From the IMG/VR virus record IMGVR_UViG_3300025098_000016: 20,000 bases of DNA; one strand, given 5' to 3'. The stretch comes from an uncultured virus (IMG/VR IMGVR_UViG_3300025098_000016) (taxonomy: Duplodnaviria > Heunggongvirae > Uroviricota > Caudoviricetes). Each line of letters starts with the position of its first letter. Positions within the stretch are counted from its first letter, which is position 1. The translations under genes were made by a program, and so were the position numbers. Shown one piece after another: positions 1,644 through 19,646 of the stretch. The notes under the pieces are model-generated. The model was not told the DNA's origin. It did not search any database and worked only from the letters and a program-made list of their open reading frames with translations.

Positions 1644-1977
1644 CTTTTATTTCCCCTGATTCTTTTTTACCTTTGTAATCTTGCTTAACCATATTATATA
1701 CACTTTCAAAGTTGCGCCAAACTTTTACAAGTGCAGGATATTCTTTACACATGTTTTCTACTTCGTCTGGATCAATCATGGTATCTAAAATATTATAATA
1801 ACCACCTGTACTACCTGCACTATCAAATGTAATATTTGGACCTGCACTATTTGTATTGATAATGTATTCACCACCAGTATCATTTACACCATCAATGGTA
1901 ATTGTTACATCACTAAGACCATAATCCATACTTGGTGAATCTGTTGTAATATAACCTGTATCGTAATCATCACCCAT
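1630..1977 (-). CDS. Hypothetical protein (115 aa)
   Basis: Low-complexity acidic/Thr/Gly N-terminus, helical C-terminus (MCKEYPALVKVWRNFESVYNMV); GGAGG upstream; overlaps both neighbours. Confidence 0.7.
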   Translation of the reverse strand: MGDDYDTGYITTDSPSMDYGLSDVTITIDGVNDTGGEYIINTNSAGPNITFDSAGSTGGYYNILDTMIDPDEVENMCKEYPALVKVWRNFESVYNMVKQDYKGKKESGEIKDELF

Positions 1978-3049
1978 TGCTTACCTCCTTGTATAATGCT
2001 TCGCCACTAAAGAAAGATCTTTTTAAGTTGTATAATTGTTTATTCATAGGACCTTTATAACTATCATAGTTTTCCATATAATCAATTACTTTGTCAACAA
2101 GTTGCGGTCTAAATTTTTTGTATTGCTCAAAGTTCTTAGTCCAAATACTTGGATACTTGAAAGGCTGATCTGCCATTTCACTATAACTAAGTCTATCAGG
2201 AACCATAGGAATAGTATCAACTAATAAACCTTCGTACCAACTAATACCTAGTGTTTCTTGTAGATTAGCACTAAACACAAGTTTAGCTTTACCTAACAAA
2301 TTATGGTAGTCATTTTTTGATAGTTGTTTTTCTTGACACACAATAAATTCATATTGCGGTAATTGTTCTTTTAAATCTCTAAAGATTTCAACTTGTTTTT
2401 CTGGAGCAACTCTGTGCGGAAACAAAATTATATCTTCTTTAGGCATGCTTTTATAACTATCTAAACTAGTAGCCAAGTACTCCATAGGCCATCCAACACG
2501 TTTAATTTTATCTTCGTTAACGTGCCTATTATCTAAAATAGGATCACCTTTGTTTTTAAATGTTTGTAAAAATAAGTCTATATGAAACTGTGTAGCAAAA
2601 AAGTTATGATCATAACAATCAAACATACTACGTTCTGCATTCCTTACCCAAGGTTTATTACCTATAAGTCTACCTAAAAAATCTTGCGGATCATAACTAC
2701 CTGCATGCCACAAACCACCAATGCGAATATCAACACCCAATAGCTCTGCCATATAGCGTAATTGAATAACTGTAGGATTCCAGGCATCGGTATAGATAAA
2801 ATAATCATCATCTTTAATTTCACCACTTGCAAACATCCTGCTAATCTCTAACATCTGTTGAGATTTGTAATTGTTAGTTCCGGCAAAGTTAAGAAATGCC
2901 CCAGGCGTTGTAGCCTGAGGTACTTCTCCACCACTAATAACAATAACTTCTTCATTCGTAGATCGTTGCAGTTGCTTTGGAAGATATTCTTTCCACTGCT
3001 TAGTATACCTAGTATCTACTGCTTCAATGTCTACGATAAAGATTGTCAT
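1970..3049 (-). CDS. GT-B (GT4-like) glycosyltransferase, GTDC1/QTMAN/DUF3524-like
   Basis: ILFPHRVAPEK donor-binding R/K motif, E-x7-E (QETLGISWYEG), PDRLSYSE; AGGAG SD upstream. Confidence 0.85.
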   Translation of the reverse strand: MTIFIVDIEAVDTRYTKQWKEYLPKQLQRSTNEEVIVISGGEVPQATTPGAFLNFAGTNNYKSQQMLEISRMFASGEIKDDDYFIYTDAWNPTVIQLRYMAELLGVDIRIGGLWHAGSYDPQDFLGRLIGNKPWVRNAERSMFDCYDHNFFATQFHIDLFLQTFKNKGDPILDNRHVNEDKIKRVGWPMEYLATSLDSYKSMPKEDIILFPHRVAPEKQVEIFRDLKEQLPQYEFIVCQEKQLSKNDYHNLLGKAKLVFSANLQETLGISWYEGLLVDTIPMVPDRLSYSEMADQPFKYPSIWTKNFEQYKKFRPQLVDKVIDYMENYDSYKGPMNKQLYNLKRSFFSGEALYKEVSNG

Positions 3050-3327: not shown

Positions 3328-3789
3328 TTAATAGCTAGGGTATGTAATTTGTGCACCGTTCTCTCCGTCTTCGGAAATCTCGATGTGGACCTCACGTCCA
3401 GTATATTTTGTTGTAATCTGCTCATACAAATCATCTGACATCATTTCACATGACTTATAATCTAGTTCAAGTGTTTTTTCTGCGTAAAGTTTCTCCATCC
3501 ATCTTTTAAATTGAATAAACTCGATATCTCTGTCATTATGTGTAACAGTAATACCTACTCTAAAATGAAATATGTGTCTATGGGGATATCCCAAAAAACT
3601 AACATCATATTCATCACCTGTTGCAAGACTAGGATCATCTAGTGCCGCAGGATACTTATGGATACCTTCTTTCTTAAAGGTTACCCAAATCATACGTTTT
3701 GCTTCTTTCATTGCTTTGTCTTTAGCATCAATCATATCTTGTTCTCTCATTCTACGCATCATATAGTCATAATGTCGTTCTTGTTGCAT
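3328..3789 (-). CDS. dpdL: QueD/PTPS-like T-fold protein, DpdL-type
   Basis: EGIH...LGYPHRHIF (LxxxHRHxF in place of QueD CxxxHGH), DRDIEF, SCEM and ISEDGENG. The real start may be a downstream Met. Confidence 0.75.
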   Translation of the reverse strand: MQQERHYDYMMRRMREQDMIDAKDKAMKEAKRMIWVTFKKEGIHKYPAALDDPSLATGDEYDVSFLGYPHRHIFHFRVGITVTHNDRDIEFIQFKRWMEKLYAEKTLELDYKSCEMMSDDLYEQITTKYTGREVHIEISEDGENGAQITYPSY

Positions 3790-4529: not shown

Positions 4530-6062
4530 TTATACCTCCGTAAATAAATTTGAAAAGCCTGTATTTGCATTTACAGTCTTTTTACCTACTGCTCCTCTAG
4601 TGCCAATAATTGACATCCAGAATTTACTATATTCTTCTATGATTGCTTCTGCTTCGTCTCTGTTTGAAGTTGCAAATATTGCTTCCACAACATCTTTAAA
4701 ATATAGCCTGTCGAATTGTTCCTCCACAAGCATTGCCGGAACATTTCCATTGTCGTATTGTCTGTTTGCTTCTTGTACTGCATTAACATGACTCCATACG
4801 TTGTGACCCATTTGTATAGCATAACTAAAACTATCCCAACTAGTTGAGTCACGTTTACGAATAATTTGATTACCGTCTTCGTCTAGTATAGGATTACCAT
4901 GTTTGTCTCTATCAATTTCTCCTGCTAAAATTTTAGGACCACCAACTTTGTTAGTGTCACCAGGAGCATATATACAAACATCGTTTACTTTAATATTTTT
5001 AGTCAAAGGACTATCAGTAAAGTTTTTAAATATTCCATCTGCTAGTACACCATCTCTAAAGTTACGTGTATCAGTTGCGTACTTTAATTCATCAATACTT
5101 GGAACCATTCTGTAGACCCATTTAGTTCTATCTTCAGTTTCAGTTTGAATGTAAATTTGTCCATTTGCTGTAGCAAGGAAAGGAGAAGCACAATCAAATG
5201 TAATTGTAAAGTTTGGATTATGATACTTACGTACTGCTCTTTGTATATCAGTTAGTAGTGTAGCCCATTCTAGTTTGCTTGTTCCTAGAAAGTGCATAAA
5301 GTCATGTTTACCTTGTTCAAGTAATCCATCAAAACGTAATGCTACAATACGTTTAAGAACTAAGTGTATATCACACATGTTCTGTCCACCCATCGACCAT
5401 CCGTTAAAGTGATTCTCATACTTTGCAGGATCACAATAGTCTTTCATCTGTTGATACCAATCTTCAGCATCAGCATGATTCTCACCTTGTAATACATTTA
5501 AGAACTTACAAGCACCTGTTCTGTGTTTCATAAAGTAGTCGTTGTTAATACGTGTAGCATTAACAGCCTCTTGATATGTACTAATACCTGTTGCTTTTGC
5601 ACCAGCAGGTGAACGTGCCACCCAAGCCGGAATATCAAGTATCATACCATAGTCCATATAAGCATCCATCCACGCAAGTACTTGCTCACGTTTCTTTTGT
5701 GCTTTAGGACAATTAGGATCTTTCCAATCGCCTTCCCAAACACCTTTACCAATTTGGAAGCCACCTGAGTCACCTAACAACCAACTGTTCTCACGATCAC
5801 GTTCTCTAACCATAAGTTCTTTTGGAGCATCTTTATTGATATCTAATTCAGCATGTCCTGCTGAGTACAGAGTCCAATGATAGTTAAACATTCCTTCTTT
5901 TTTGTTTAACCAATTCATACTTTCCATACTAGGATAAGGAATACGACTTTCTTCAACATATTCTTCACGCCTTTGCTTACCTACAAATGTTGCGTAGAAT
6001 CCACTTAGAGCTGGAAGAAATATTGCATAGTCTTTTTGTGCTGTTGTTAAGTCAGTATTCAA
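4530..6062 (-). CDS. dpdA: TGT-family guanine transglycosylase (queuine tRNA-ribosyltransferase / DpdA-like)
   Basis: Ordered TGT motifs DSGGFQ, ILDIP, VLQG, MGG, HFLG and FDCASP. Likely start is TTG at 6062, 7 nt after AGGAG (6070-6074), giving 510 aa; the ORF-track start at 6152 lies inside the clamp gene. Confidence 0.85.
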   Translation of the reverse strand: MNTDLTTAQKDYAIFLPALSGFYATFVGKQRREEYVEESRIPYPSMESMNWLNKKEGMFNYHWTLYSAGHAELDINKDAPKELMVRERDRENSWLLGDSGGFQIGKGVWEGDWKDPNCPKAQKKREQVLAWMDAYMDYGMILDIPAWVARSPAGAKATGISTYQEAVNATRINNDYFMKHRTGACKFLNVLQGENHADAEDWYQQMKDYCDPAKYENHFNGWSMGGQNMCDIHLVLKRIVALRFDGLLEQGKHDFMHFLGTSKLEWATLLTDIQRAVRKYHNPNFTITFDCASPFLATANGQIYIQTETEDRTKWVYRMVPSIDELKYATDTRNFRDGVLADGIFKNFTDSPLTKNIKVNDVCIYAPGDTNKVGGPKILAGEIDRDKHGNPILDEDGNQIIRKRDSTSWDSFSYAIQMGHNVWSHVNAVQEANRQYDNGNVPAMLVEEQFDRLYFKDVVEAIFATSNRDEAEAIIEEYSKFWMSIIGTRGAVGKKTVNANTGFSNLFTEV

Positions 6063-6072
6063 CTTGTTTCTC

Positions 6073-6819
6073 CTACTTAGATTGTGCTGGCAAAATGTAA
6101 TTGTATGTTCCCATACCACTATCAACTGTAATTTGCATTGCACCTTGATCACTTAGACTCATTGTTGCTTGTCCGTCCAAGTTTAAGATTGCTTGTACTT
6201 GTGCTACAGGATATGTCCATGCATGCTTTAATGTACCTTCAACACCTGTTTGGAATACAAACTTACCTGCGTGTGTATTTGCATCACCAAAGTAAAACAT
6301 TACATCAGTAACACCACTAGTTTCTTCAACTTTAATTGTAAAAGTTGTTTCTTCTGAATGTGCCGCACTTTGCAATTTCATTCTAGTAATTGCCGCTAAC
6401 GATGGAGTAAATGATACATCCCATGTTGCACCTTTAAACTTAACACTTTTAAGTTTTTCATTAATAATCTCTGTTGACATAAAACGGAAATCGTTTTGGA
6501 AATCACCTGCTTCATTCTCAAAGTGAATACCAGTTGGAATAACTGTACCATTACGATCTTGTTCGGTAATTGTAAGTTTGCTATTCTTTTGATACTCTGG
6601 ATTCTTTAAATGCAATGCAAGTTTATCTAAGTTAGGCATACCAAAAATGTTTGCGCCAAATTCAGCTACCTTTTCTTTTGTGTTTGCTGACAGAATTACA
6701 CTGCGATCTTCTGCCATTGATTCAACAGTAGTACTACTGTCGTCTCCTGTTACTTTCACTAAGCTCAAAAAGCCTAAAGAATGTGTCTTTGCTACTACGT
6801 CTTGTAAAATATCTTTCAT
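6073..6819 (-). CDS. DNA sliding clamp (gp45/PCNA-like)
   Basis: 248 aa, beta-rich two-domain pattern ending in ITVDSGMGTYNYILPA; close to polB; AGGAG SD. Confidence 0.7.
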   Translation of the reverse strand: MKDILQDVVAKTHSLGFLSLVKVTGDDSSTTVESMAEDRSVILSANTKEKVAEFGANIFGMPNLDKLALHLKNPEYQKNSKLTITEQDRNGTVIPTGIHFENEAGDFQNDFRFMSTEIINEKLKSVKFKGATWDVSFTPSLAAITRMKLQSAAHSEETTFTIKVEETSGVTDVMFYFGDANTHAGKFVFQTGVEGTLKHAWTYPVAQVQAILNLDGQATMSLSDQGAMQITVDSGMGTYNYILPAQSK

Positions 6820-6842: not shown

Positions 6843-6871
6843 ATTATACGACATTTTGTTGATAAAGTCAA
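6843..6871 (-). promoter_or_regulatory. Sigma70-type (early) promoter for the clamp-transglycosylase operon
   Basis: TTGACT (6866-6871), 17 nt, TATAAT (6843-6848). Confidence 0.8.
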
Positions 6872-6874
6872 CAA
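6856..6874. repeat. 7-bp inverted repeat over the -35 box
   Basis: TTGTTGA-TAAAG-TCAACAA. Confidence 0.6.
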
Positions 6875-7275
6875 CTTTTTACTCTATTTCGGAGATCACT
6901 GCTCGAAAAACGGTGCTCTCTTTTGTTAAAAAACAGTTCGATTCCTCGTTTGGCACATATAGCCCTACCAGTAAACTTACCATTTTTGTATTCTTCACCT
7001 AAAATCCTTACATCAATATGAAGCATATTTAGAATGTCTTCTAAGTCAGTTTCTGTTTGATATGGGATTATTTCGTCAACGTACTTGACAGCACTAAGTT
7101 GTGTATGTCTTTCTACTATAGTTTGTACGGGTGAATTTTTCTCTGGACGATCAAGACTTGGATCAATTTGTAGGCCACAAATCAAGTAGTCACATTGTTC
7201 TTTTGCATCTCTCAGCATTTGTATATGACCTGCGTGGAGCAGATCAAATGTACTACATGTGAAGCCTATTCTCAT
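6868..7275 (-). CDS. Cytidylyltransferase (TagD/glycerol-3-phosphate CT-like)
   Basis: TFDLLHAGH (HxGH), YVDEIIPY, RFSSSDLR. Confidence 0.9.
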   Translation of the reverse strand: MRIGFTCSTFDLLHAGHIQMLRDAKEQCDYLICGLQIDPSLDRPEKNSPVQTIVERHTQLSAVKYVDEIIPYQTETDLEDILNMLHIDVRILGEEYKNGKFTGRAICAKRGIELFFNKREHRFSSSDLRNRVKSC

Positions 7276-7985
7276 TTCTTAAAGCCTTGTTCTTTTAAAA
7301 ATCCATCTACTGTATATTTAGGTCTAAAGCCTAACTTATCCATCAAATGTGTATTTGCCTGTGTTTTTGTTCTTTCGCCAATAGTATTTAACTTTACTGG
7401 CAAATCAGGTCTTATGTCCTGGATCCTTACACATTCTCCAGTACCAATGTCAATATTACCTGTTAGGTCTTTGTCCATTAATAACATAATACCATCTGTT
7501 AAATCTTCTAAATGTATAAAATCTCTTAGATGATTTGTTGTGTATTCTAATGTATTGTTAAGCAATTTATCAAAGAACATTTTAGCTCTTGGACTTTCGC
7601 TGTACACTGTATGAAATCTCATAAACAATGCATTAGGGTGTGGAATGTTTTCAATTACATTCTTACTTGCGGCATATGGATTAAGATGTGGTTCGTACTG
7701 TGAACTTGATCCTGCTACTAATACTCGAACATTATCGTAGAACTCAAGTATACGTTTTGTTCCTTCTACATTAGTGTCCCAATACTTTTTAGGATCAGCA
7801 AGACTTTCTCTTACGCCGCCAATGCCTGCTAAGTGTATTACAAAATCTACCTTAGGTAGTTCTGAGGTTAATATATTAGTACCTTCTTTAATATCTATAC
7901 CGACAACATCATGTCCATCTACAACTAACTTTTCTTTTAGTCTTGATCCGATGAAACCTAGATGCCCTGTAATTAGTATCTTCAT
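7272..7985 (-). CDS. NAD-dependent epimerase/dehydratase (extended SDR)
   Basis: ILITGHLGFIGS (GxxGxxG), HLAG, SSS, YAASK (YxxxK), RDFIH. Confidence 0.92.
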   Translation of the reverse strand: MKILITGHLGFIGSRLKEKLVVDGHDVVGIDIKEGTNILTSELPKVDFVIHLAGIGGVRESLADPKKYWDTNVEGTKRILEFYDNVRVLVAGSSSQYEPHLNPYAASKNVIENIPHPNALFMRFHTVYSESPRAKMFFDKLLNNTLEYTTNHLRDFIHLEDLTDGIMLLMDKDLTGNIDIGTGECVRIQDIRPDLPVKLNTIGERTKTQANTHLMDKLGFRPKYTVDGFLKEQGFKK

Positions 7986-8737
7986 GTTTCTTTCCTTTTG
8001 TTCTTATTGCTTGTTACAGCAGTTGATAATATTGGTAGTGTGGCGCCAATTACATTTGCTGAATACAGCAATGCTTCTGTATCTTTTGGAAAGCATGCTC
8101 CTCCAAAACCTTTGTCGCCATCTGGACCTGGAACTTGCATATGACTATGTGTAATTCTTTTGTCCTCACCTACCAATGCTTTAACTTGATTATAATCTAT
8201 TCCTGCTGATTCGCATAGATCAAATACTTCGTTAAAGAAAGCAACCTTGGTTGCTAAAAAACTATTGCGTAAATATTTTGTTAATATTAATTCTTCTACC
8301 GTAGCATAGATTGGATTGAATCCTTTACATAAAATAAACACATCATTCCAAAACTCTACATTACCTCCACCAAATAACATTGTTGTTTGATTTTTAAAGT
8401 CTTCGTTTGCATTGGCCGCAGTTAAAAACTCAGGGCTAAATGTAATTTCTTTATTTTGTGGCTTAAGATCTTTGCGCCACCCTTCTAAACTAATTGTGCT
8501 TTTAATTAAAATAGGTTTATCACTTGGACATGCTTTAACTACAGTTTCAACAATAGTCATATTACATGCTCCTGTTACTGTAGCAGGTGTTGGAACACAA
8601 ATAACATAACCGTCGCTATCGTTATCAATAACATTATCGTTATATTCAGGATCAACAATCTTTACTTCATGATAGTCTTTGAGTACTTCGTACACAGCCT
8701 TGCCTACAAAGCCATACCCAATTAAAGTTAGTTTCAT
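7982..8737 (-). CDS. ugd: UDP-glucose/GDP-mannose 6-dehydrogenase family (short form)
   Basis: IGYGFVG, ICVPTP, IKSTI, SPEFL, K-x3-N and GFGGACFPKD with the catalytic Cys; no C-terminal UDP-binding domain. Confidence 0.88.
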   Translation of the reverse strand: MKLTLIGYGFVGKAVYEVLKDYHEVKIVDPEYNDNVIDNDSDGYVICVPTPATVTGACNMTIVETVVKACPSDKPILIKSTISLEGWRKDLKPQNKEITFSPEFLTAANANEDFKNQTTMLFGGGNVEFWNDVFILCKGFNPIYATVEELILTKYLRNSFLATKVAFFNEVFDLCESAGIDYNQVKALVGEDKRITHSHMQVPGPDGDKGFGGACFPKDTEALLYSANVIGATLPILSTAVTSNKNKRKET

Positions 8738-8949
8738 TTAGCCTCCTTCTTTGCTTGCAATTTAGGATGTGGAGTTTTATCGTTAAAGATATCTCCAGCC
8801 ATTGCTTGTATTTGTTCTACTAGATGAGTAACTAACTGTTCGTCATACTCCTCACCTGGTGCCTTTTTATATTTTTCTCTATGTGCTTGAATGGCCATTC
8901 CGTGCATTGCACTAACCTTGTCCATTAGTTGTTGTATTGTATGTTGCAT
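8734..8949 (-). CDS. Hypothetical helical protein (71 aa)
   Basis: GGAGG SD; start overlaps the polB stop (TAATG). Confidence 0.7.
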   Translation of the reverse strand: MQHTIQQLMDKVSAMHGMAIQAHREKYKKAPGEEYDEQLVTHLVEQIQAMAGDIFNDKTPHPKLQAKKEAK

Positions 8950-11621
8950 TATTCACCTCCAAAGTCAAACAAACTATTGAACGTATTGTTCTGTTTAGTG
9001 TCTTCTAAATCATAGTTTAGAACACCAATTAGGTTATCTAGTTTGTTATCAATAATAGTTGCTTCCATAGCATCGCCATCAAATGGCAGTTCTTTGAACC
9101 ATTCTGGAATACGCAATTCATCTGTAGGGTATGCAACACTTGTGTAACCTAGCGGATTTTGTTTTAGTTTGCATACAATAACTTTCATACCGTCAACAAT
9201 CTCTTGCGAGTACTTGTCACCATTCATACGTTTTAGTGTATTCCAATTAATACTTGCTCTAACATGCCCAGGCATGTTTGCTTTACCTTGCTTTTCTTCA
9301 AGACGTTGATAGTGTCCTACTTTGTTTGCACGTTTAGGTGCACCTTTTTCATAACCTGGACGTAGTTTAAACTCCTTACGAAATTGTGTAATACGATCTA
9401 ATACTTTTCTTTCTTCAACATCAGTAAGTACCATAAGCAATAGCTCACTTAAGAACTCCTGCATAAACACAGGTGTATCTGATCTACGCAAGTCTAAGCC
9501 CATTGCTTTTACTTTGCCTGGTTTACCATCTTCATCTGTTCTAAAGCCTTCGTTATCAATTACTAGTGCCGCATAACGCTTCTTAGTAATATACAATCCG
9601 CTTTTTGCAACAATTTCTCTACCTGCGGCAATAACGTCTGCACGACTCTTTGGACAATGGAATGCTTGTAGCATAAAATCTATAAATGTACTGTCAACAG
9701 CATCACTTACTTGATCATAAAGTTTGATAGCGTTCTCAGTACTCCAAGGAATGTCTCCTTTATCAATACCTTCTTTAAGCATTGGGTAAGCACTAAAGTA
9801 AACAGAGTCTGTATCACCATATATAACAGCATCACCTACGTGATCATATGTACCTGTAATAACTTTGTTTGCTTCTGCACTCATATGCTTAACAATAGTA
9901 CGACCTGACAGTGTTGTTGACTGTCCAATACGTTTGTCAAAGAATCTACAACCAGGATTAAGAATAGCACCATACAAACTGTTCAAGTTAATCTTTTTAA
10001 CAAGTTGTCGCTTGTCCCAGTATTCAATCTCTGTAGCATTGCCGGCATCCTTAGCCTTCTTTAACATTGCTTGTAGTTCTTTACGTTCTGAATACCAACG
10101 TTTTAGTAGTCCGGGTATAACACCTTCGTGTTCTGTTGTAAAAATAGTACCGTTTGCACTAAGCATCCAAGGTTGATTGCTATCAAATACAAGTTTATAA
10201 ATCTCTGCACCTGATAATACATCACTTTGTCCGTTCTCCCAGTCAACAGTTAGTGCAGTATCACGTTTCTGTTCCATAACTGCTTCATATTCTTCTGTAG
10301 CAAAACGTCCTTCCCAACTGCCTGCGAAACTTTTCTTCTTAAGACCCATATCTTCTTTTACACGAGCATCTGAAACGTCTGGACGTAGTTGTCCAACAAC
10401 TGTTGCTGGATCCATATTCAATGCACGAATAACACTAGGATACAGACTGTTCAAGTCCATACTAGCAATCCATTTGTGCAAGCCTTTTTTTGGAAATGCA
10501 ACATAAGCACCTGCCGCTTGTGTGTTTTCTTCATCACGGTGCGGACGATTAGGTACTTGCATACCACGTCTGTGTGCTTCATTAACAATCGCTTGTTCTG
10601 TAACTGCGACAGCACCCATAGTGGTCTGTAGCAAAACAGTGTTTGCATGTGCAAGTTCGTTACTTAGATCAATAAATCTTAGTTTTTTGTCCAGCTTGTC
10701 CAGTAGTGCGGTATCTTGTATGTTGTATTCGATGAACTTTCTAAAGTCATTGTTGTACAACTGGTCCAAAGTGCCTTCATAAGGGACCTTGTTCTCACCA
10801 ACTTCGATTTCGCCAATGGCATCAAGTCTATATGTGTGTCTTTCTTCATATGTATATTTACGATATAATTCCAAACTATCTAAATGCACTCTGCCTATTA
10901 GGTCAAAGGTAACAGCTGATTTACCATACTTTTCATATTCACGTTTCTTAGGAAGTTGACCCCACAAGCAGAATCTACGTGTATCATCCTTGCTTAGTAC
11001 ACGGGCAGTTCTGTTTACAGTATACGGAATATCATAACCTTCACTGTTCCAACCTGATAAAATATCAGCGTCTTCAATCAGCGTTAAGAAAGTGTCAATC
11101 ATTTCACTTTCTTTTTCAACTAGCATTACATTATCAATGCCTTCAATTTCTTTTTTAGCCTGCTCCATAGTAAGTGTCTTAGGCGGCACAGCAATACAGA
11201 TCATTGTTTCCATCCACTGTAAGTATACAGAGATACTTGTAATAGGCATAAACGGATCTGCAGGATCAGCAAAGCCACGCTCTGGATCAAAGTCAGTCTC
11301 AATATCAAAGAATGCAATGTTTAGTTTAGGAGCATCTTGATTGAGATAGTTTTCACTCAAACATTGGAATATAGGATTAATATCGCTTTCAAACATCTTC
11401 TTGCCTTTGTTAATAGCAAGTTCTTTACGAAACTCCTTTGTGTTCTTACACACAATTCTACTAATTGGATCGCCGTAGATGCTTTTAAATTTACCTCTTT
11501 GATCTTCATAATAAAATGTATACTTGATTGGATATTCAGTAAACTTTCTTTTGCCGTCTTTACGTTCTACAACACGTACAATGTCACTGTCTCTATCAAA
11601 TAATGCGTCTACGTAACTCAA
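8949..11621 (-). CDS. polB: Family B DNA polymerase (gp43-like)
   Basis: ExoI FDIET, ExoII GWNSEGYDIPY, ExoIII YNIQD, DLNSLYPS, KINLNSLYG, YGDTDS, KKRY. TTG start after GGGAG. Confidence 0.97.
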   Translation of the reverse strand: MSYVDALFDRDSDIVRVVERKDGKRKFTEYPIKYTFYYEDQRGKFKSIYGDPISRIVCKNTKEFRKELAINKGKKMFESDINPIFQCLSENYLNQDAPKLNIAFFDIETDFDPERGFADPADPFMPITSISVYLQWMETMICIAVPPKTLTMEQAKKEIEGIDNVMLVEKESEMIDTFLTLIEDADILSGWNSEGYDIPYTVNRTARVLSKDDTRRFCLWGQLPKKREYEKYGKSAVTFDLIGRVHLDSLELYRKYTYEERHTYRLDAIGEIEVGENKVPYEGTLDQLYNNDFRKFIEYNIQDTALLDKLDKKLRFIDLSNELAHANTVLLQTTMGAVAVTEQAIVNEAHRRGMQVPNRPHRDEENTQAAGAYVAFPKKGLHKWIASMDLNSLYPSVIRALNMDPATVVGQLRPDVSDARVKEDMGLKKKSFAGSWEGRFATEEYEAVMEQKRDTALTVDWENGQSDVLSGAEIYKLVFDSNQPWMLSANGTIFTTEHEGVIPGLLKRWYSERKELQAMLKKAKDAGNATEIEYWDKRQLVKKINLNSLYGAILNPGCRFFDKRIGQSTTLSGRTIVKHMSAEANKVITGTYDHVGDAVIYGDTDSVYFSAYPMLKEGIDKGDIPWSTENAIKLYDQVSDAVDSTFIDFMLQAFHCPKSRADVIAAGREIVAKSGLYITKKRYAALVIDNEGFRTDEDGKPGKVKAMGLDLRRSDTPVFMQEFLSELLLMVLTDVEERKVLDRITQFRKEFKLRPGYEKGAPKRANKVGHYQRLEEKQGKANMPGHVRASINWNTLKRMNGDKYSQEIVDGMKVIVCKLKQNPLGYTSVAYPTDELRIPEWFKELPFDGDAMEATIIDNKLDNLIGVLNYDLEDTKQNNTFNSLFDFGGE

Positions 11622-12224
11622 TTAATTCTCCCTGTAAGTAATGTCATTAATGTTTCCTGCTAAAACATATCTTGTTGTGTTTACAGGATATACTTTATGA
11701 TGTATGGTACTAGGAAACATGACTACCATATCATTATACACTGGTAAGTTGACTTCGTCAACCGGAAAGATTTCGATTTTGGACTCCTGCATTTCAACAA
11801 ACGTAAGTGGATTGTTACTTTCGCCTACATCTAAGTAGTAAACCCAACTGTAACGACTTAGTGTACCGTGTTCGTGTTGTGGACAACCTTGTCCGGGTAA
11901 GCTCTCTTGGAACCATACTTCTGCATCAATGTTTAATTGACTAGTTTCATGCCAAACTTGATCAGTTATAAACTTAGGACCCCTTGGACGTACAATATTA
12001 TGGCAATACCATAAATGTATTTTGTCTAGTAAAGGACTAATTATATCGTGATCAAGATGTATTTCGTGGTTAGTCTTCCATGACTCAACAGTATATTGTT
12101 CTTCCTCTTTTAATTTAAGGAAATAATCAATAATAGGTTTTGTGGTTTGTTTAGTAAAGCCAAGCGGGCCATGTCTTATGGCGGTCGGCTGAGATATGTA
12201 TAGTGTACTACAACTTAACTTCAT
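11622..12224 (-). CDS. 2OG-Fe(II) oxygenase, TIGR02466-like
   Basis: QHEH, YSWVYY, MFPSTIHHKV, RYVLAGN. Confidence 0.82.
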   Translation of the reverse strand: MKLSCSTLYISQPTAIRHGPLGFTKQTTKPIIDYFLKLKEEEQYTVESWKTNHEIHLDHDIISPLLDKIHLWYCHNIVRPRGPKFITDQVWHETSQLNIDAEVWFQESLPGQGCPQHEHGTLSRYSWVYYLDVGESNNPLTFVEMQESKIEIFPVDEVNLPVYNDMVVMFPSTIHHKVYPVNTTRYVLAGNINDITYREN

Positions 12225-19283: not shown

Positions 19284-19646
19284 ATGTTGAAGCACAAACA
19301 CATGATAATTAGAGCTGAAGTAAGCAATCCACCACAATGCGAGCAAACTATAGTCGATTGGGCTGGTAATTTAATAAGAGATATAGATATGAAGATAATG
19401 ATGGGGCCATATGCTAAGTATTGTGAAATGCCGGGCAATAGAGGGTTTACGTGTGTTACTATTATTGAAACAAGTCATATAGCAATACACGTTTGGGACG
19501 AAACCAGTCCTGCACTAGTACAACTAGATGTATATACATGTGGTGAATTACATAAAGATAAAGTATTTGATGCACTAGAACGCTGGGATCCAGTTAAAGT
19601 TGAATACAAATATTTAGATAGAGAAAAAGAACTTACGTTAGTTTAA
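19284..19646 (+). CDS. speD: Pyruvoyl-dependent S-adenosylmethionine decarboxylase family proenzyme
   Basis: G-x-T-x4-IETSHIAIHVWDE and LDVYTCG motifs; AAGGA SD. Confidence 0.88.
   Translation: MLKHKHMIIRAEVSNPPQCEQTIVDWAGNLIRDIDMKIMMGPYAKYCEMPGNRGFTCVTIIETSHIAIHVWDETSPALVQLDVYTCGELHKDKVFDALERWDPVKVEYKYLDREKELTLV

Follow-up and report, generated by a model that had tools for sequence, protein, structure and literature searches.

How might a phage bring a base-exchange enzyme to the DNA that it has just replicated? The question is raised by a 20,000-nucleotide stretch of an uncultured virus (IMG/VR record IMGVR_UViG_3300025098_000016; the whole stretch is called the window below), which carries a section of the replication module of a marine jumbo phage. 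In this window, a predicted enzyme of the tRNA-guanine transglycosylase (TGT)/DpdA superfamily and the phage's family-B DNA polymerase end in similar short peptides, and the gene of a PCNA-like sliding clamp lies next to that of the enzyme. All long genes of the window are on the minus strand, in the order family-B polymerase, three sugar-nucleotide genes, PCNA-like sliding clamp and divergent TGT/DpdA-superfamily enzyme. By analogy with the clamp ligands of phages T4 and RB69, we propose that the enzyme is probably held on the PCNA-like clamp of the phage by its tail, so that guanine exchange would be concentrated on newly replicated DNA. The features that enter the argument are as follows.

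8949-11621, minus strand: family-B DNA polymerase (T4 gp43 type), 890 amino acids, named from Pfam and PHROGs matches
8967-8990, minus strand: tail motif of the polymerase, NNTFNSLF, followed by DFGGE and the stop, read from the sequence
6073-6819, minus strand: PCNA-like sliding clamp, 248 amino acids, named from a structure model and Foldseek
6060-6075, minus strand: stop of the clamp gene, ribosome site and start of the enzyme gene, read from the sequence
4530-6062, minus strand: predicted TGT/DpdA-superfamily base-exchange enzyme, 510 amino acids, TTG start, named from fold and aligned motifs
4533-4607, minus strand: disordered C-terminal tail of the enzyme, residues 486-510, delimited by model confidence (pLDDT, predicted local distance difference test)
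4542-4565, minus strand: tail motif of the enzyme, N-T-G-F-S-N-L-F and then T-E-V, with the core F503-x-x-L506-F507
3328-3789, minus strand: DpdL-like (QueD-related) protein, 153 amino acids, matching phrog_17812 (1.2e-34)

The enzyme ends in NTGFSNLFTEV, with minus-strand bases 4542-4565 encoding N500-T-G-F-S-N-L-F507, and the polymerase ends in NNTFNSLFDFGGE, with bases 8967-8990 encoding N878-N-T-F-N-S-L-F885. An earlier note, made from the letters of this DNA, had drawn attention to both endings, and its positions and C-terminal sequences are correct in every detail. It had also placed the clamp gene directly upstream of the enzyme gene, with the clamp's TAG stop overlapping the enzyme's ribosome site, and this is what we read at 6075-6070: the stop (6075-6073) runs into the AGGAG of the ribosome site (6074-6070), and the TTG start of the enzyme (6062-6060) follows seven bases on. 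The length of 510 amino acids obtained from this start equals that of the closest database relatives (100% coverage). In the structure model of the enzyme, pLDDT falls below 50 at residues 490-502 and 508-510, and a short helix (503-507) spans FSNLF, so that the motif stands out as a small ordered element in an otherwise disordered tail.

Peptides of this kind have a precedent among clamp ligands. The hydrophobic-acidic C-termini of T4 and RB69 proteins are described as interchangeable ligands of the clamp (Geiduschek and Kassavetis, PMC2988020), and the same source describes such a peptide as common to the polymerase, gp55 and gp33 for binding the gp45 clamp, reports crystals of the RB69 clamp together with the last 11 residues of its polymerase, and notes that the epitope of gp55 is preceded by a divergent, probably unstructured linker. 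RB69 gp43 ends in ASLFDMFDF, T4 gp43 in ASLDFLFG and T4 gp55 in SLDFLYEAND. The window polymerase, itself of the gp43 type, has the SLFD core of ASLFDMFDF in its NSLFDFGGE ending. The earlier note had invoked T4-type polymerase tails as gp45 ligands, and the tail of the window polymerase indeed matches the clamp-binding peptide of RB69 gp43 (PMC2988020). The arrangement here thus resembles that of the T4 and RB69 gp45 ligands in having a short hydrophobic-acidic terminal peptide after a variable unstructured linker, both in the polymerase and in a client that is not a polymerase. It differs in that the client here is a predicted DNA base-exchange enzyme, whereas theirs is a transcription factor; in that the clamp here best matches PCNA-type clamps among the Foldseek matches listed; and in that the putative ligand is often internal and followed by an acidic extension in relatives.

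The ending recurs widely among homologues of the enzyme. A family search of 1.84 billion cluster representatives returned 962 relatives at E ≤ 0.001. Among 101 family representatives (at least 400 amino acids, mutual identity at most 50%), F..[LM]F was found within the last 45 residues of 19; 500 rounds of shuffling gave 1.4 on average and never more than 6, an enrichment of about 13-fold over shuffled tails, and interior stretches gave 0.5. The shorter [LM]F was found within the last 45 residues of 52/101 (shuffles 24.9, maximum 38). When 24 members with 30-61% identity were aligned, the tail was unalignable except for F-x-x-L-F, which stood in register in most rows. This 24-sequence alignment was used for the locus search, and the window-clade set comprised 80 IMG/VR loci, with 79 enzyme genes complete at the 3' end and 72 distinct enzyme tails. 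The pattern [FY]-x-x-[LF]-F was present in 67/72 of these tails, and the polymerase C-termini from the same 80 loci carried x-F-x-x-[LF]-F in 71/71 cases. In a Phosso-like clade (phages of ~180-470 kb, ~28-33% identity to the window's enzyme), a long charged linker leads up to [GS]LF within the final four residues of all complete tails (6/6). No loci were returned by searches with the distant relatives P0156, whose tail carries the motif, and P0133, whose tail lacks it.

Tabulated position by position, the enzyme tails read [F/V/H]-x-x-[L/I]-F-[D/E] (88 instances) and the polymerase tails T-F-[N/D]-x-L-F-[D/E]-F (76 instances). At the position that corresponds to the Q of a PCNA-interacting-peptide (PIP) box, the enzyme has S/A/R/K/N and the polymerase K/N/H. 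Since N is not conserved there, the real motif is F-x-x-L-F-(D/E), and the N-x-x-F-x-x-L-F that the earlier note had likened to a PIP box is retained in its F-x-x-L-F core and loses its N, which varies in both proteins. As judged from the sequences, the main signal in the tails is the consensus that enzyme and polymerase have in common.

This likeness is also seen within single phages. The clearest case is Vibrio phage 2.275.O, in which the enzyme ends in NNNDLFGW and the polymerase in NNTDLFDW. In Pseudomonas phage PA5oct, the enzyme has SFNSLFD followed by an acidic extension, and the polymerase ends in HFDSLFGW. The corresponding tails are NLFDF and DLFDF in one clade of loci (L097-L105), and V-x-D-[IL]-F and [VI]-D-D-L-F in another (L123-L137 and relatives), which has the most divergent clamps; at locus L080, whose clamp is 33% identical to that of the window, FF stands in place of LF in enzyme and polymerase alike. 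Of 318 called genes in a related 256-kb contig, those of the enzyme and the polymerase alone have an F-N-x-L-F-E ending.

The gene order points in the same direction. The enzyme gene is preceded, on its own strand, by a clamp gene in 79/80 window-clade loci (one of the matches is a partial clamp) and in 87/89 loci of two more distant clades, and in the three clamp-less loci the upstream DNA is missing. The order polymerase, clamp, enzyme is also found in PA5oct, whose clamp and enzyme have the accessions QCG76195 and QCG76197, and in Vibrio phage 2.275.O. In Phosso, polymerase and clamp genes lie together and the enzyme gene adjoins those of a primase and a DnaB-like helicase.

Because sequence libraries recognised neither the enzyme nor the clamp, both names were checked by structure. 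The 248-amino-acid protein had no match in Pfam, NCBIfam or PDB sequence searches, and only phrog_12062, a family of unknown function, matched it. Its model (pLDDT 92.8) had PCNA-type proteins as the top Foldseek matches listed, namely eukaryotic PCNAs and the African swine fever virus clamp (E 1.6e-10, template-modelling score 0.6-0.7). Judged by this model, the protein is a PCNA-like clamp with a two-domain protomer fold, in agreement with the 'clamp' label of the earlier note. An RFC-like clamp loader (AAA/DNA_pol3_delta2 protein) is encoded in the related 256-kb contig. The polymerase was recognised directly, by Pfam DNA_pol_B (1.8e-37) and DNA_pol_B_exo1 (3.2e-18) and by phrog_262 (2.8e-195), and its C-terminal 299 amino acids match T4-like gp43 genes at ~28-30% identity. 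Two details of the PA5oct record concern the same genes: a homing-endonuclease gene interrupts that of the polymerase (L001 1605-6831), and its clamp (L001 6912-7658) is annotated 'structural protein' from mass-spectrometry evidence.

The enzyme was without a match in Pfam (E ≤ 0.01, PF01702 included), PHROGs, NCBIfam, PADLOC and PDB sequence searches, both as a single sequence and as a 101-sequence profile. Its model (pLDDT 91.4) gave tRNA-guanine transglycosylases for 50/50 of the Foldseek matches listed (best E 7e-7). A VIA-align search of 48,161 chains ranked archaeosine TGT (Z 19.1), QTRT2 (17.9), bacterial TGT (16.8), the DNA preQ0 insertase DpdA 7ui4 (16.1) and Cap10 (15.0) first, and a gap separated these five superfamily members from ordinary TIM barrels (Z ≤ 11.8). 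Alignment of the 101-sequence family profile to E. coli Tgt by hhalign (87.9% probability, E 3.2e-6, ending at residue 304) paired DSGGFQ with DSGGFQ, LDIP with FDEC, HFLG with YLMG and FDCASP with FDCVMP. The aspartates of DSGGFQ, FDEC and FDC have catalytic and base-binding roles in TGTs. In the family, D143, H257, G260 and D290 are invariant across 101 sequences, and D98-S-G-G-x-Q is nearly so (D98 in at least 90%). Canonical TGTs also have a CxCxxC...H zinc-binding subdomain, and the CxCxxC motif is absent from the 510-amino-acid enzyme, since it has a single Cys after D290.

Fold and aligned catalytic motifs thus bear out the label 'TGT-like' of the earlier note, and on the model the enzyme is a divergent branch of the TGT/DpdA superfamily, placed in no named DpdA subfamily. 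It resembles DpdA (7ui4 and phage DpdA1-4) in its TGT-superfamily fold, its conserved catalytic aspartates and the 7-deazaguanine synthesis genes nearby; unlike DpdA, it goes undetected by library hidden Markov models and by PDB profile search. The hhalign comparison with DpdA3 of phage phiST gave 76% probability and E 2.2e-5, over 83 columns only (510 versus 259 amino acids), and tblastn of the enzyme against phage records did not reach phiST, whose gp042 we mapped by gene order to CGPG_00065, its DpdA3. DpdA3 of phiST is similarly situated, its gene lying between pathway genes and polymerase genes (PMC10516641), and is far shorter, with 259 amino acids as against 510 in the window enzyme.

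Taken together, these observations suggest the following model. The enzyme would swap guanine in phage DNA for a 7-deazaguanine base. Its catalytic domain would be followed by a disordered, variable linker ending in F-x-x-L-F-(D/E), apparently a copy of the peptide that ends the phage's own polymerase; by the T4/RB69 analogy, it would serve as a docking epitope for the phage clamp. Clamps loaded at the replication fork or left behind it could then gather the enzyme on new duplex DNA, which would couple base exchange to replication. Both clamp binding and any processivity, which the earlier note had also proposed, are inferences.

DNMT1 and UNG2 exemplify the eukaryotic/archaeal-type PCNA-tethered DNA modifiers and glycosylases, which carry a canonical PIP box beginning with Q. 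The arrangement proposed here would resemble theirs in that a short clamp-binding peptide, in this case putative, recruits to new DNA an enzyme acting on bases of the duplex. It differs in that the Q position is not conserved, and in that the predicted chemistry, here in a phage, replaces bases as an anti-restriction measure. Bacterial DpdA, for its part, needs a DpdB-type ATPase. We offer more tentatively, as a possibility that we do not favour at present, an extension of the model to the whole widespread family of jumbo-phage DNA transglycosylases: these would all be replisome components that ride the clamp and replace guanine in duplex DNA behind the fork, with no DpdB-type ATPase and with the second conserved acidic motif of many relatives recruiting a further replisome partner, and the coupling would enable near-complete replacement.

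Several observations weigh against clamp docking. The earlier note had made conservation in homologues a check on its claim; the core does recur down to ~28% identity and in several phage clades, and yet 49/101 distant representatives are without [LM]F in their last 45 residues. Even in the window's clade, 5/72 tails deviate (MSNNLF, FQNHY, FYANF, FYNRNY and FFNKHF), and neither Q nor N is conserved at the PIP-box Q position in enzyme or polymerase. In the Phosso-like clade, no clamp or polymerase gene lies less than 10 kb from that of the enzyme. In the 256-kb contig, a loose form of the pattern ends 11/318 genes, near the interior background of 2.6%, so that in a single genome the ending could arise by chance; the motif is raised above chance because it is conserved across homologues. 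A permutation test of how well each enzyme tail fits its own polymerase, compared with the polymerases of other clades, gave p = 0.023 with 17 clades, 0.085 with 8 and 0.14 with 5, and therefore lineage-specific co-variation is suggestive, not established. Among 3,877 open reading frames of window-clade and related loci, no convincing case of a further recurrent tail client was found. The choice of DNA over tRNA as the substrate is drawn entirely from gene context. Finally, the motif is internal in many relatives, where an acidic extension of 30-40 residues follows it. A predicted complex of the clamp with enzyme residues 476-510 scored 0.23 against a mark of 0.32, which speaks neither for nor against binding.

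The acidic extension, which the window's enzyme does not have, ends in a second conserved motif of approximately (D/E)-x-K-L-x-x-L-E (for example LDETKLEELEDEQL), seen in loci L013-L081 and L108-L185 and in PA5oct (L001:7995-9617). Another partner may dock there, which would make it a second docking peptide.

Two other families had been considered as tail clients and were set aside, a 299-amino-acid family ending in PRLH-[IV]-x-LFGNAWGT (40 loci) and a 258-amino-acid family ending in NIINLFNGETV (6 loci); in both, the end is conserved together with its flanks and looks folded. The gene of the 299-amino-acid protein, which belongs to no recognised family, adjoins that of GTP cyclohydrolase I (FolE; L061:16885-17805 and, in the 256-kb contig, L093:8699-9592).

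If instead the two proteins use their common peptide to bind a hub that is not the phage's own clamp, this hub could be the host beta clamp, the clamp loader, a single-strand-binding protein or a helicase. The consensus of host beta clamp ligands is QL[SD]LF, which the hydrophobic, LF-ending x-F-[NS]-x-L-F peptide resembles; the enzyme gene of the Phosso-like clade adjoins primase and DnaB-like helicase genes, not a clamp gene; and the (D/E)-x-K-L-x-x-L-E motif of many relatives suggests more than one partner. We nevertheless consider another hub unlikely, as these phages encode a PCNA-like clamp of their own, and an RFC-like loader in the related contig, and as the clamp gene stands directly ahead of the enzyme gene in most clades. 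Moreover, the phage polymerase bears this peptide, and in RB69 the equivalent one has been crystallised on the phage's clamp (PMC2988020).

It is slightly less probable still that the tail has nothing to do with the replisome and serves self-association, autoinhibition or turnover, its likeness to the polymerase being a convergence on a common hydrophobic-acidic ending. Only three residues of the motif are fixed, which would favour this reading, as would the weak lineage-specific co-variation and the lack of the motif in about half of the distant relatives. Against it stand the enrichment of the motif over shuffled tails, its position, always at the end of a disordered linker as in clamp ligands, and the near-identical endings of enzyme and polymerase within single phages, above all in Vibrio phage 2.275.O. 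Docking on the phage clamp remains our preferred reading.

Guanine exchange behind the fork further presupposes that the enzyme acts on DNA. This is the likely substrate, on the basis of gene context: a DpdL homologue in the window and GTP cyclohydrolase I nearby both point to DNA. The 153-amino-acid protein matched, by tblastn, a phiST gene that lies between those of MazG and an ATPase (32.6% identity, E 3e-12), which by the published gene order should be CGPG_00067. CGPG_00067 is described as QueD-like, in a section on the predicted 7-carboxy-7-deazaguanine (CDG) decarboxylase for 7-deazaguanine DNA, and its product is named DpdL there (PMC10516641). The gene of FolE lies ~1.6 kb past the window's left end in the nearest record and is also found in the related 256-kb contig (G002). 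In Vibrio phage 2.275.O, the enzyme gene is followed by QueF, a PF02592 transporter (a family that we take to be the queuosine-precursor transporter YhhQ), QueC and FolE genes. In PA5oct, a QueE gene lies 3 kb from the enzyme gene; the phage is reported to encode QueE and a PTPS, and its DNA resists several restriction enzymes, which the authors read as modified G (PMC12191111); in the words of Iyer and colleagues, PA5oct has "a deazaguanine synthesis/incorporation system" (PMC7824862). Two of these settings speak against tRNA as the substrate: the gene belongs to a replication module with DpdL and FolE nearby, a setting also known from phages whose DNA contains 7-deazaguanine (PMC10516641), and PA5oct has the gene, no annotated DpdA in the 17-kb stretch that we examined, and restriction-resistant DNA (PMC12191111).

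Six-frame searches of two related records (G001 and G002) found no canonical PF01702 gene and no PF01242 (QueD) gene, and tblastn of E. coli Tgt against phage records returned host-like tgt genes only, and no DpdA. It is very improbable that the enzyme modifies tRNA like a canonical TGT and has a tail unconnected with DNA. In favour of this reading, the closest solved folds belong to tRNA enzymes (archaeosine TGT Z 19.1 versus 16.1 for DpdA), but such scores are near ties and the fold is silent on the substrate; against it, the canonical CxCxxC zinc motif is absent.

The kind of enzyme and the kind of clamp ligand are both known, and their combination is new. In the text open to them, our full-text searches found no paper connecting DpdA-type enzymes with a sliding clamp, and 'clamp' has 0 occurrences in the accessible text of PMC10516641, in which Cui, Hutinet et al. 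propose that every 7-deazaguanine modification of DNA reported is introduced after replication. Some phages achieve complete guanine replacement. A clamp-docking tail would give the coupling of replication and base exchange a concrete, testable form, consisting of two short peptides and one clamp. If docking is confirmed, a DNA-hypermodifying enzyme would join the list of sliding-clamp clients, and a function would be proposed for a large protein family (962 cluster representatives) that no library recognises. PA5oct provides a cultured system with both the enzyme gene and the motif.

Other genes of the window are noted here. Between polymerase and clamp (6868-8737, minus strand) lie the genes of a UDP-glucose-dehydrogenase-like protein (251 amino acids), an NAD-dependent epimerase (237) and a cytidylyltransferase (135). 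On the downstream side of the enzyme gene, 1970-3049 encodes a 359-amino-acid protein without a recognised family. The module is flanked, on the minus strand, by genes of a phosphoribosyltransferase, a cupin (PHROG name 'cysteine dioxygenase') and two 2-oxoglutarate-Fe(II) oxygenases, at 514-1077, 1227-1643, 2-553 and 11622-12224; a phosphoribosyltransferase gene also adjoins that of FolE in the related 256-kb contig (L093:11307-11906). The S-adenosylmethionine decarboxylase gene (19284-19646) is on the plus strand, opposite to nearly all other genes of the window.

The related 256-kb contig (G002) also carries ~13 radical-SAM genes in a row (L090:15386 to L092:5953), of which several include a SPASM or B12-binding domain. 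A stand-alone DNA polymerase III alpha fragment of 176-191 amino acids is encoded both in the related contig (L095:16683-17213) and in Phosso (L187:4098-4673), and such small fragments fit the split mini Pol III alpha described for group 2.2 jumbo phages (PMC7824862).

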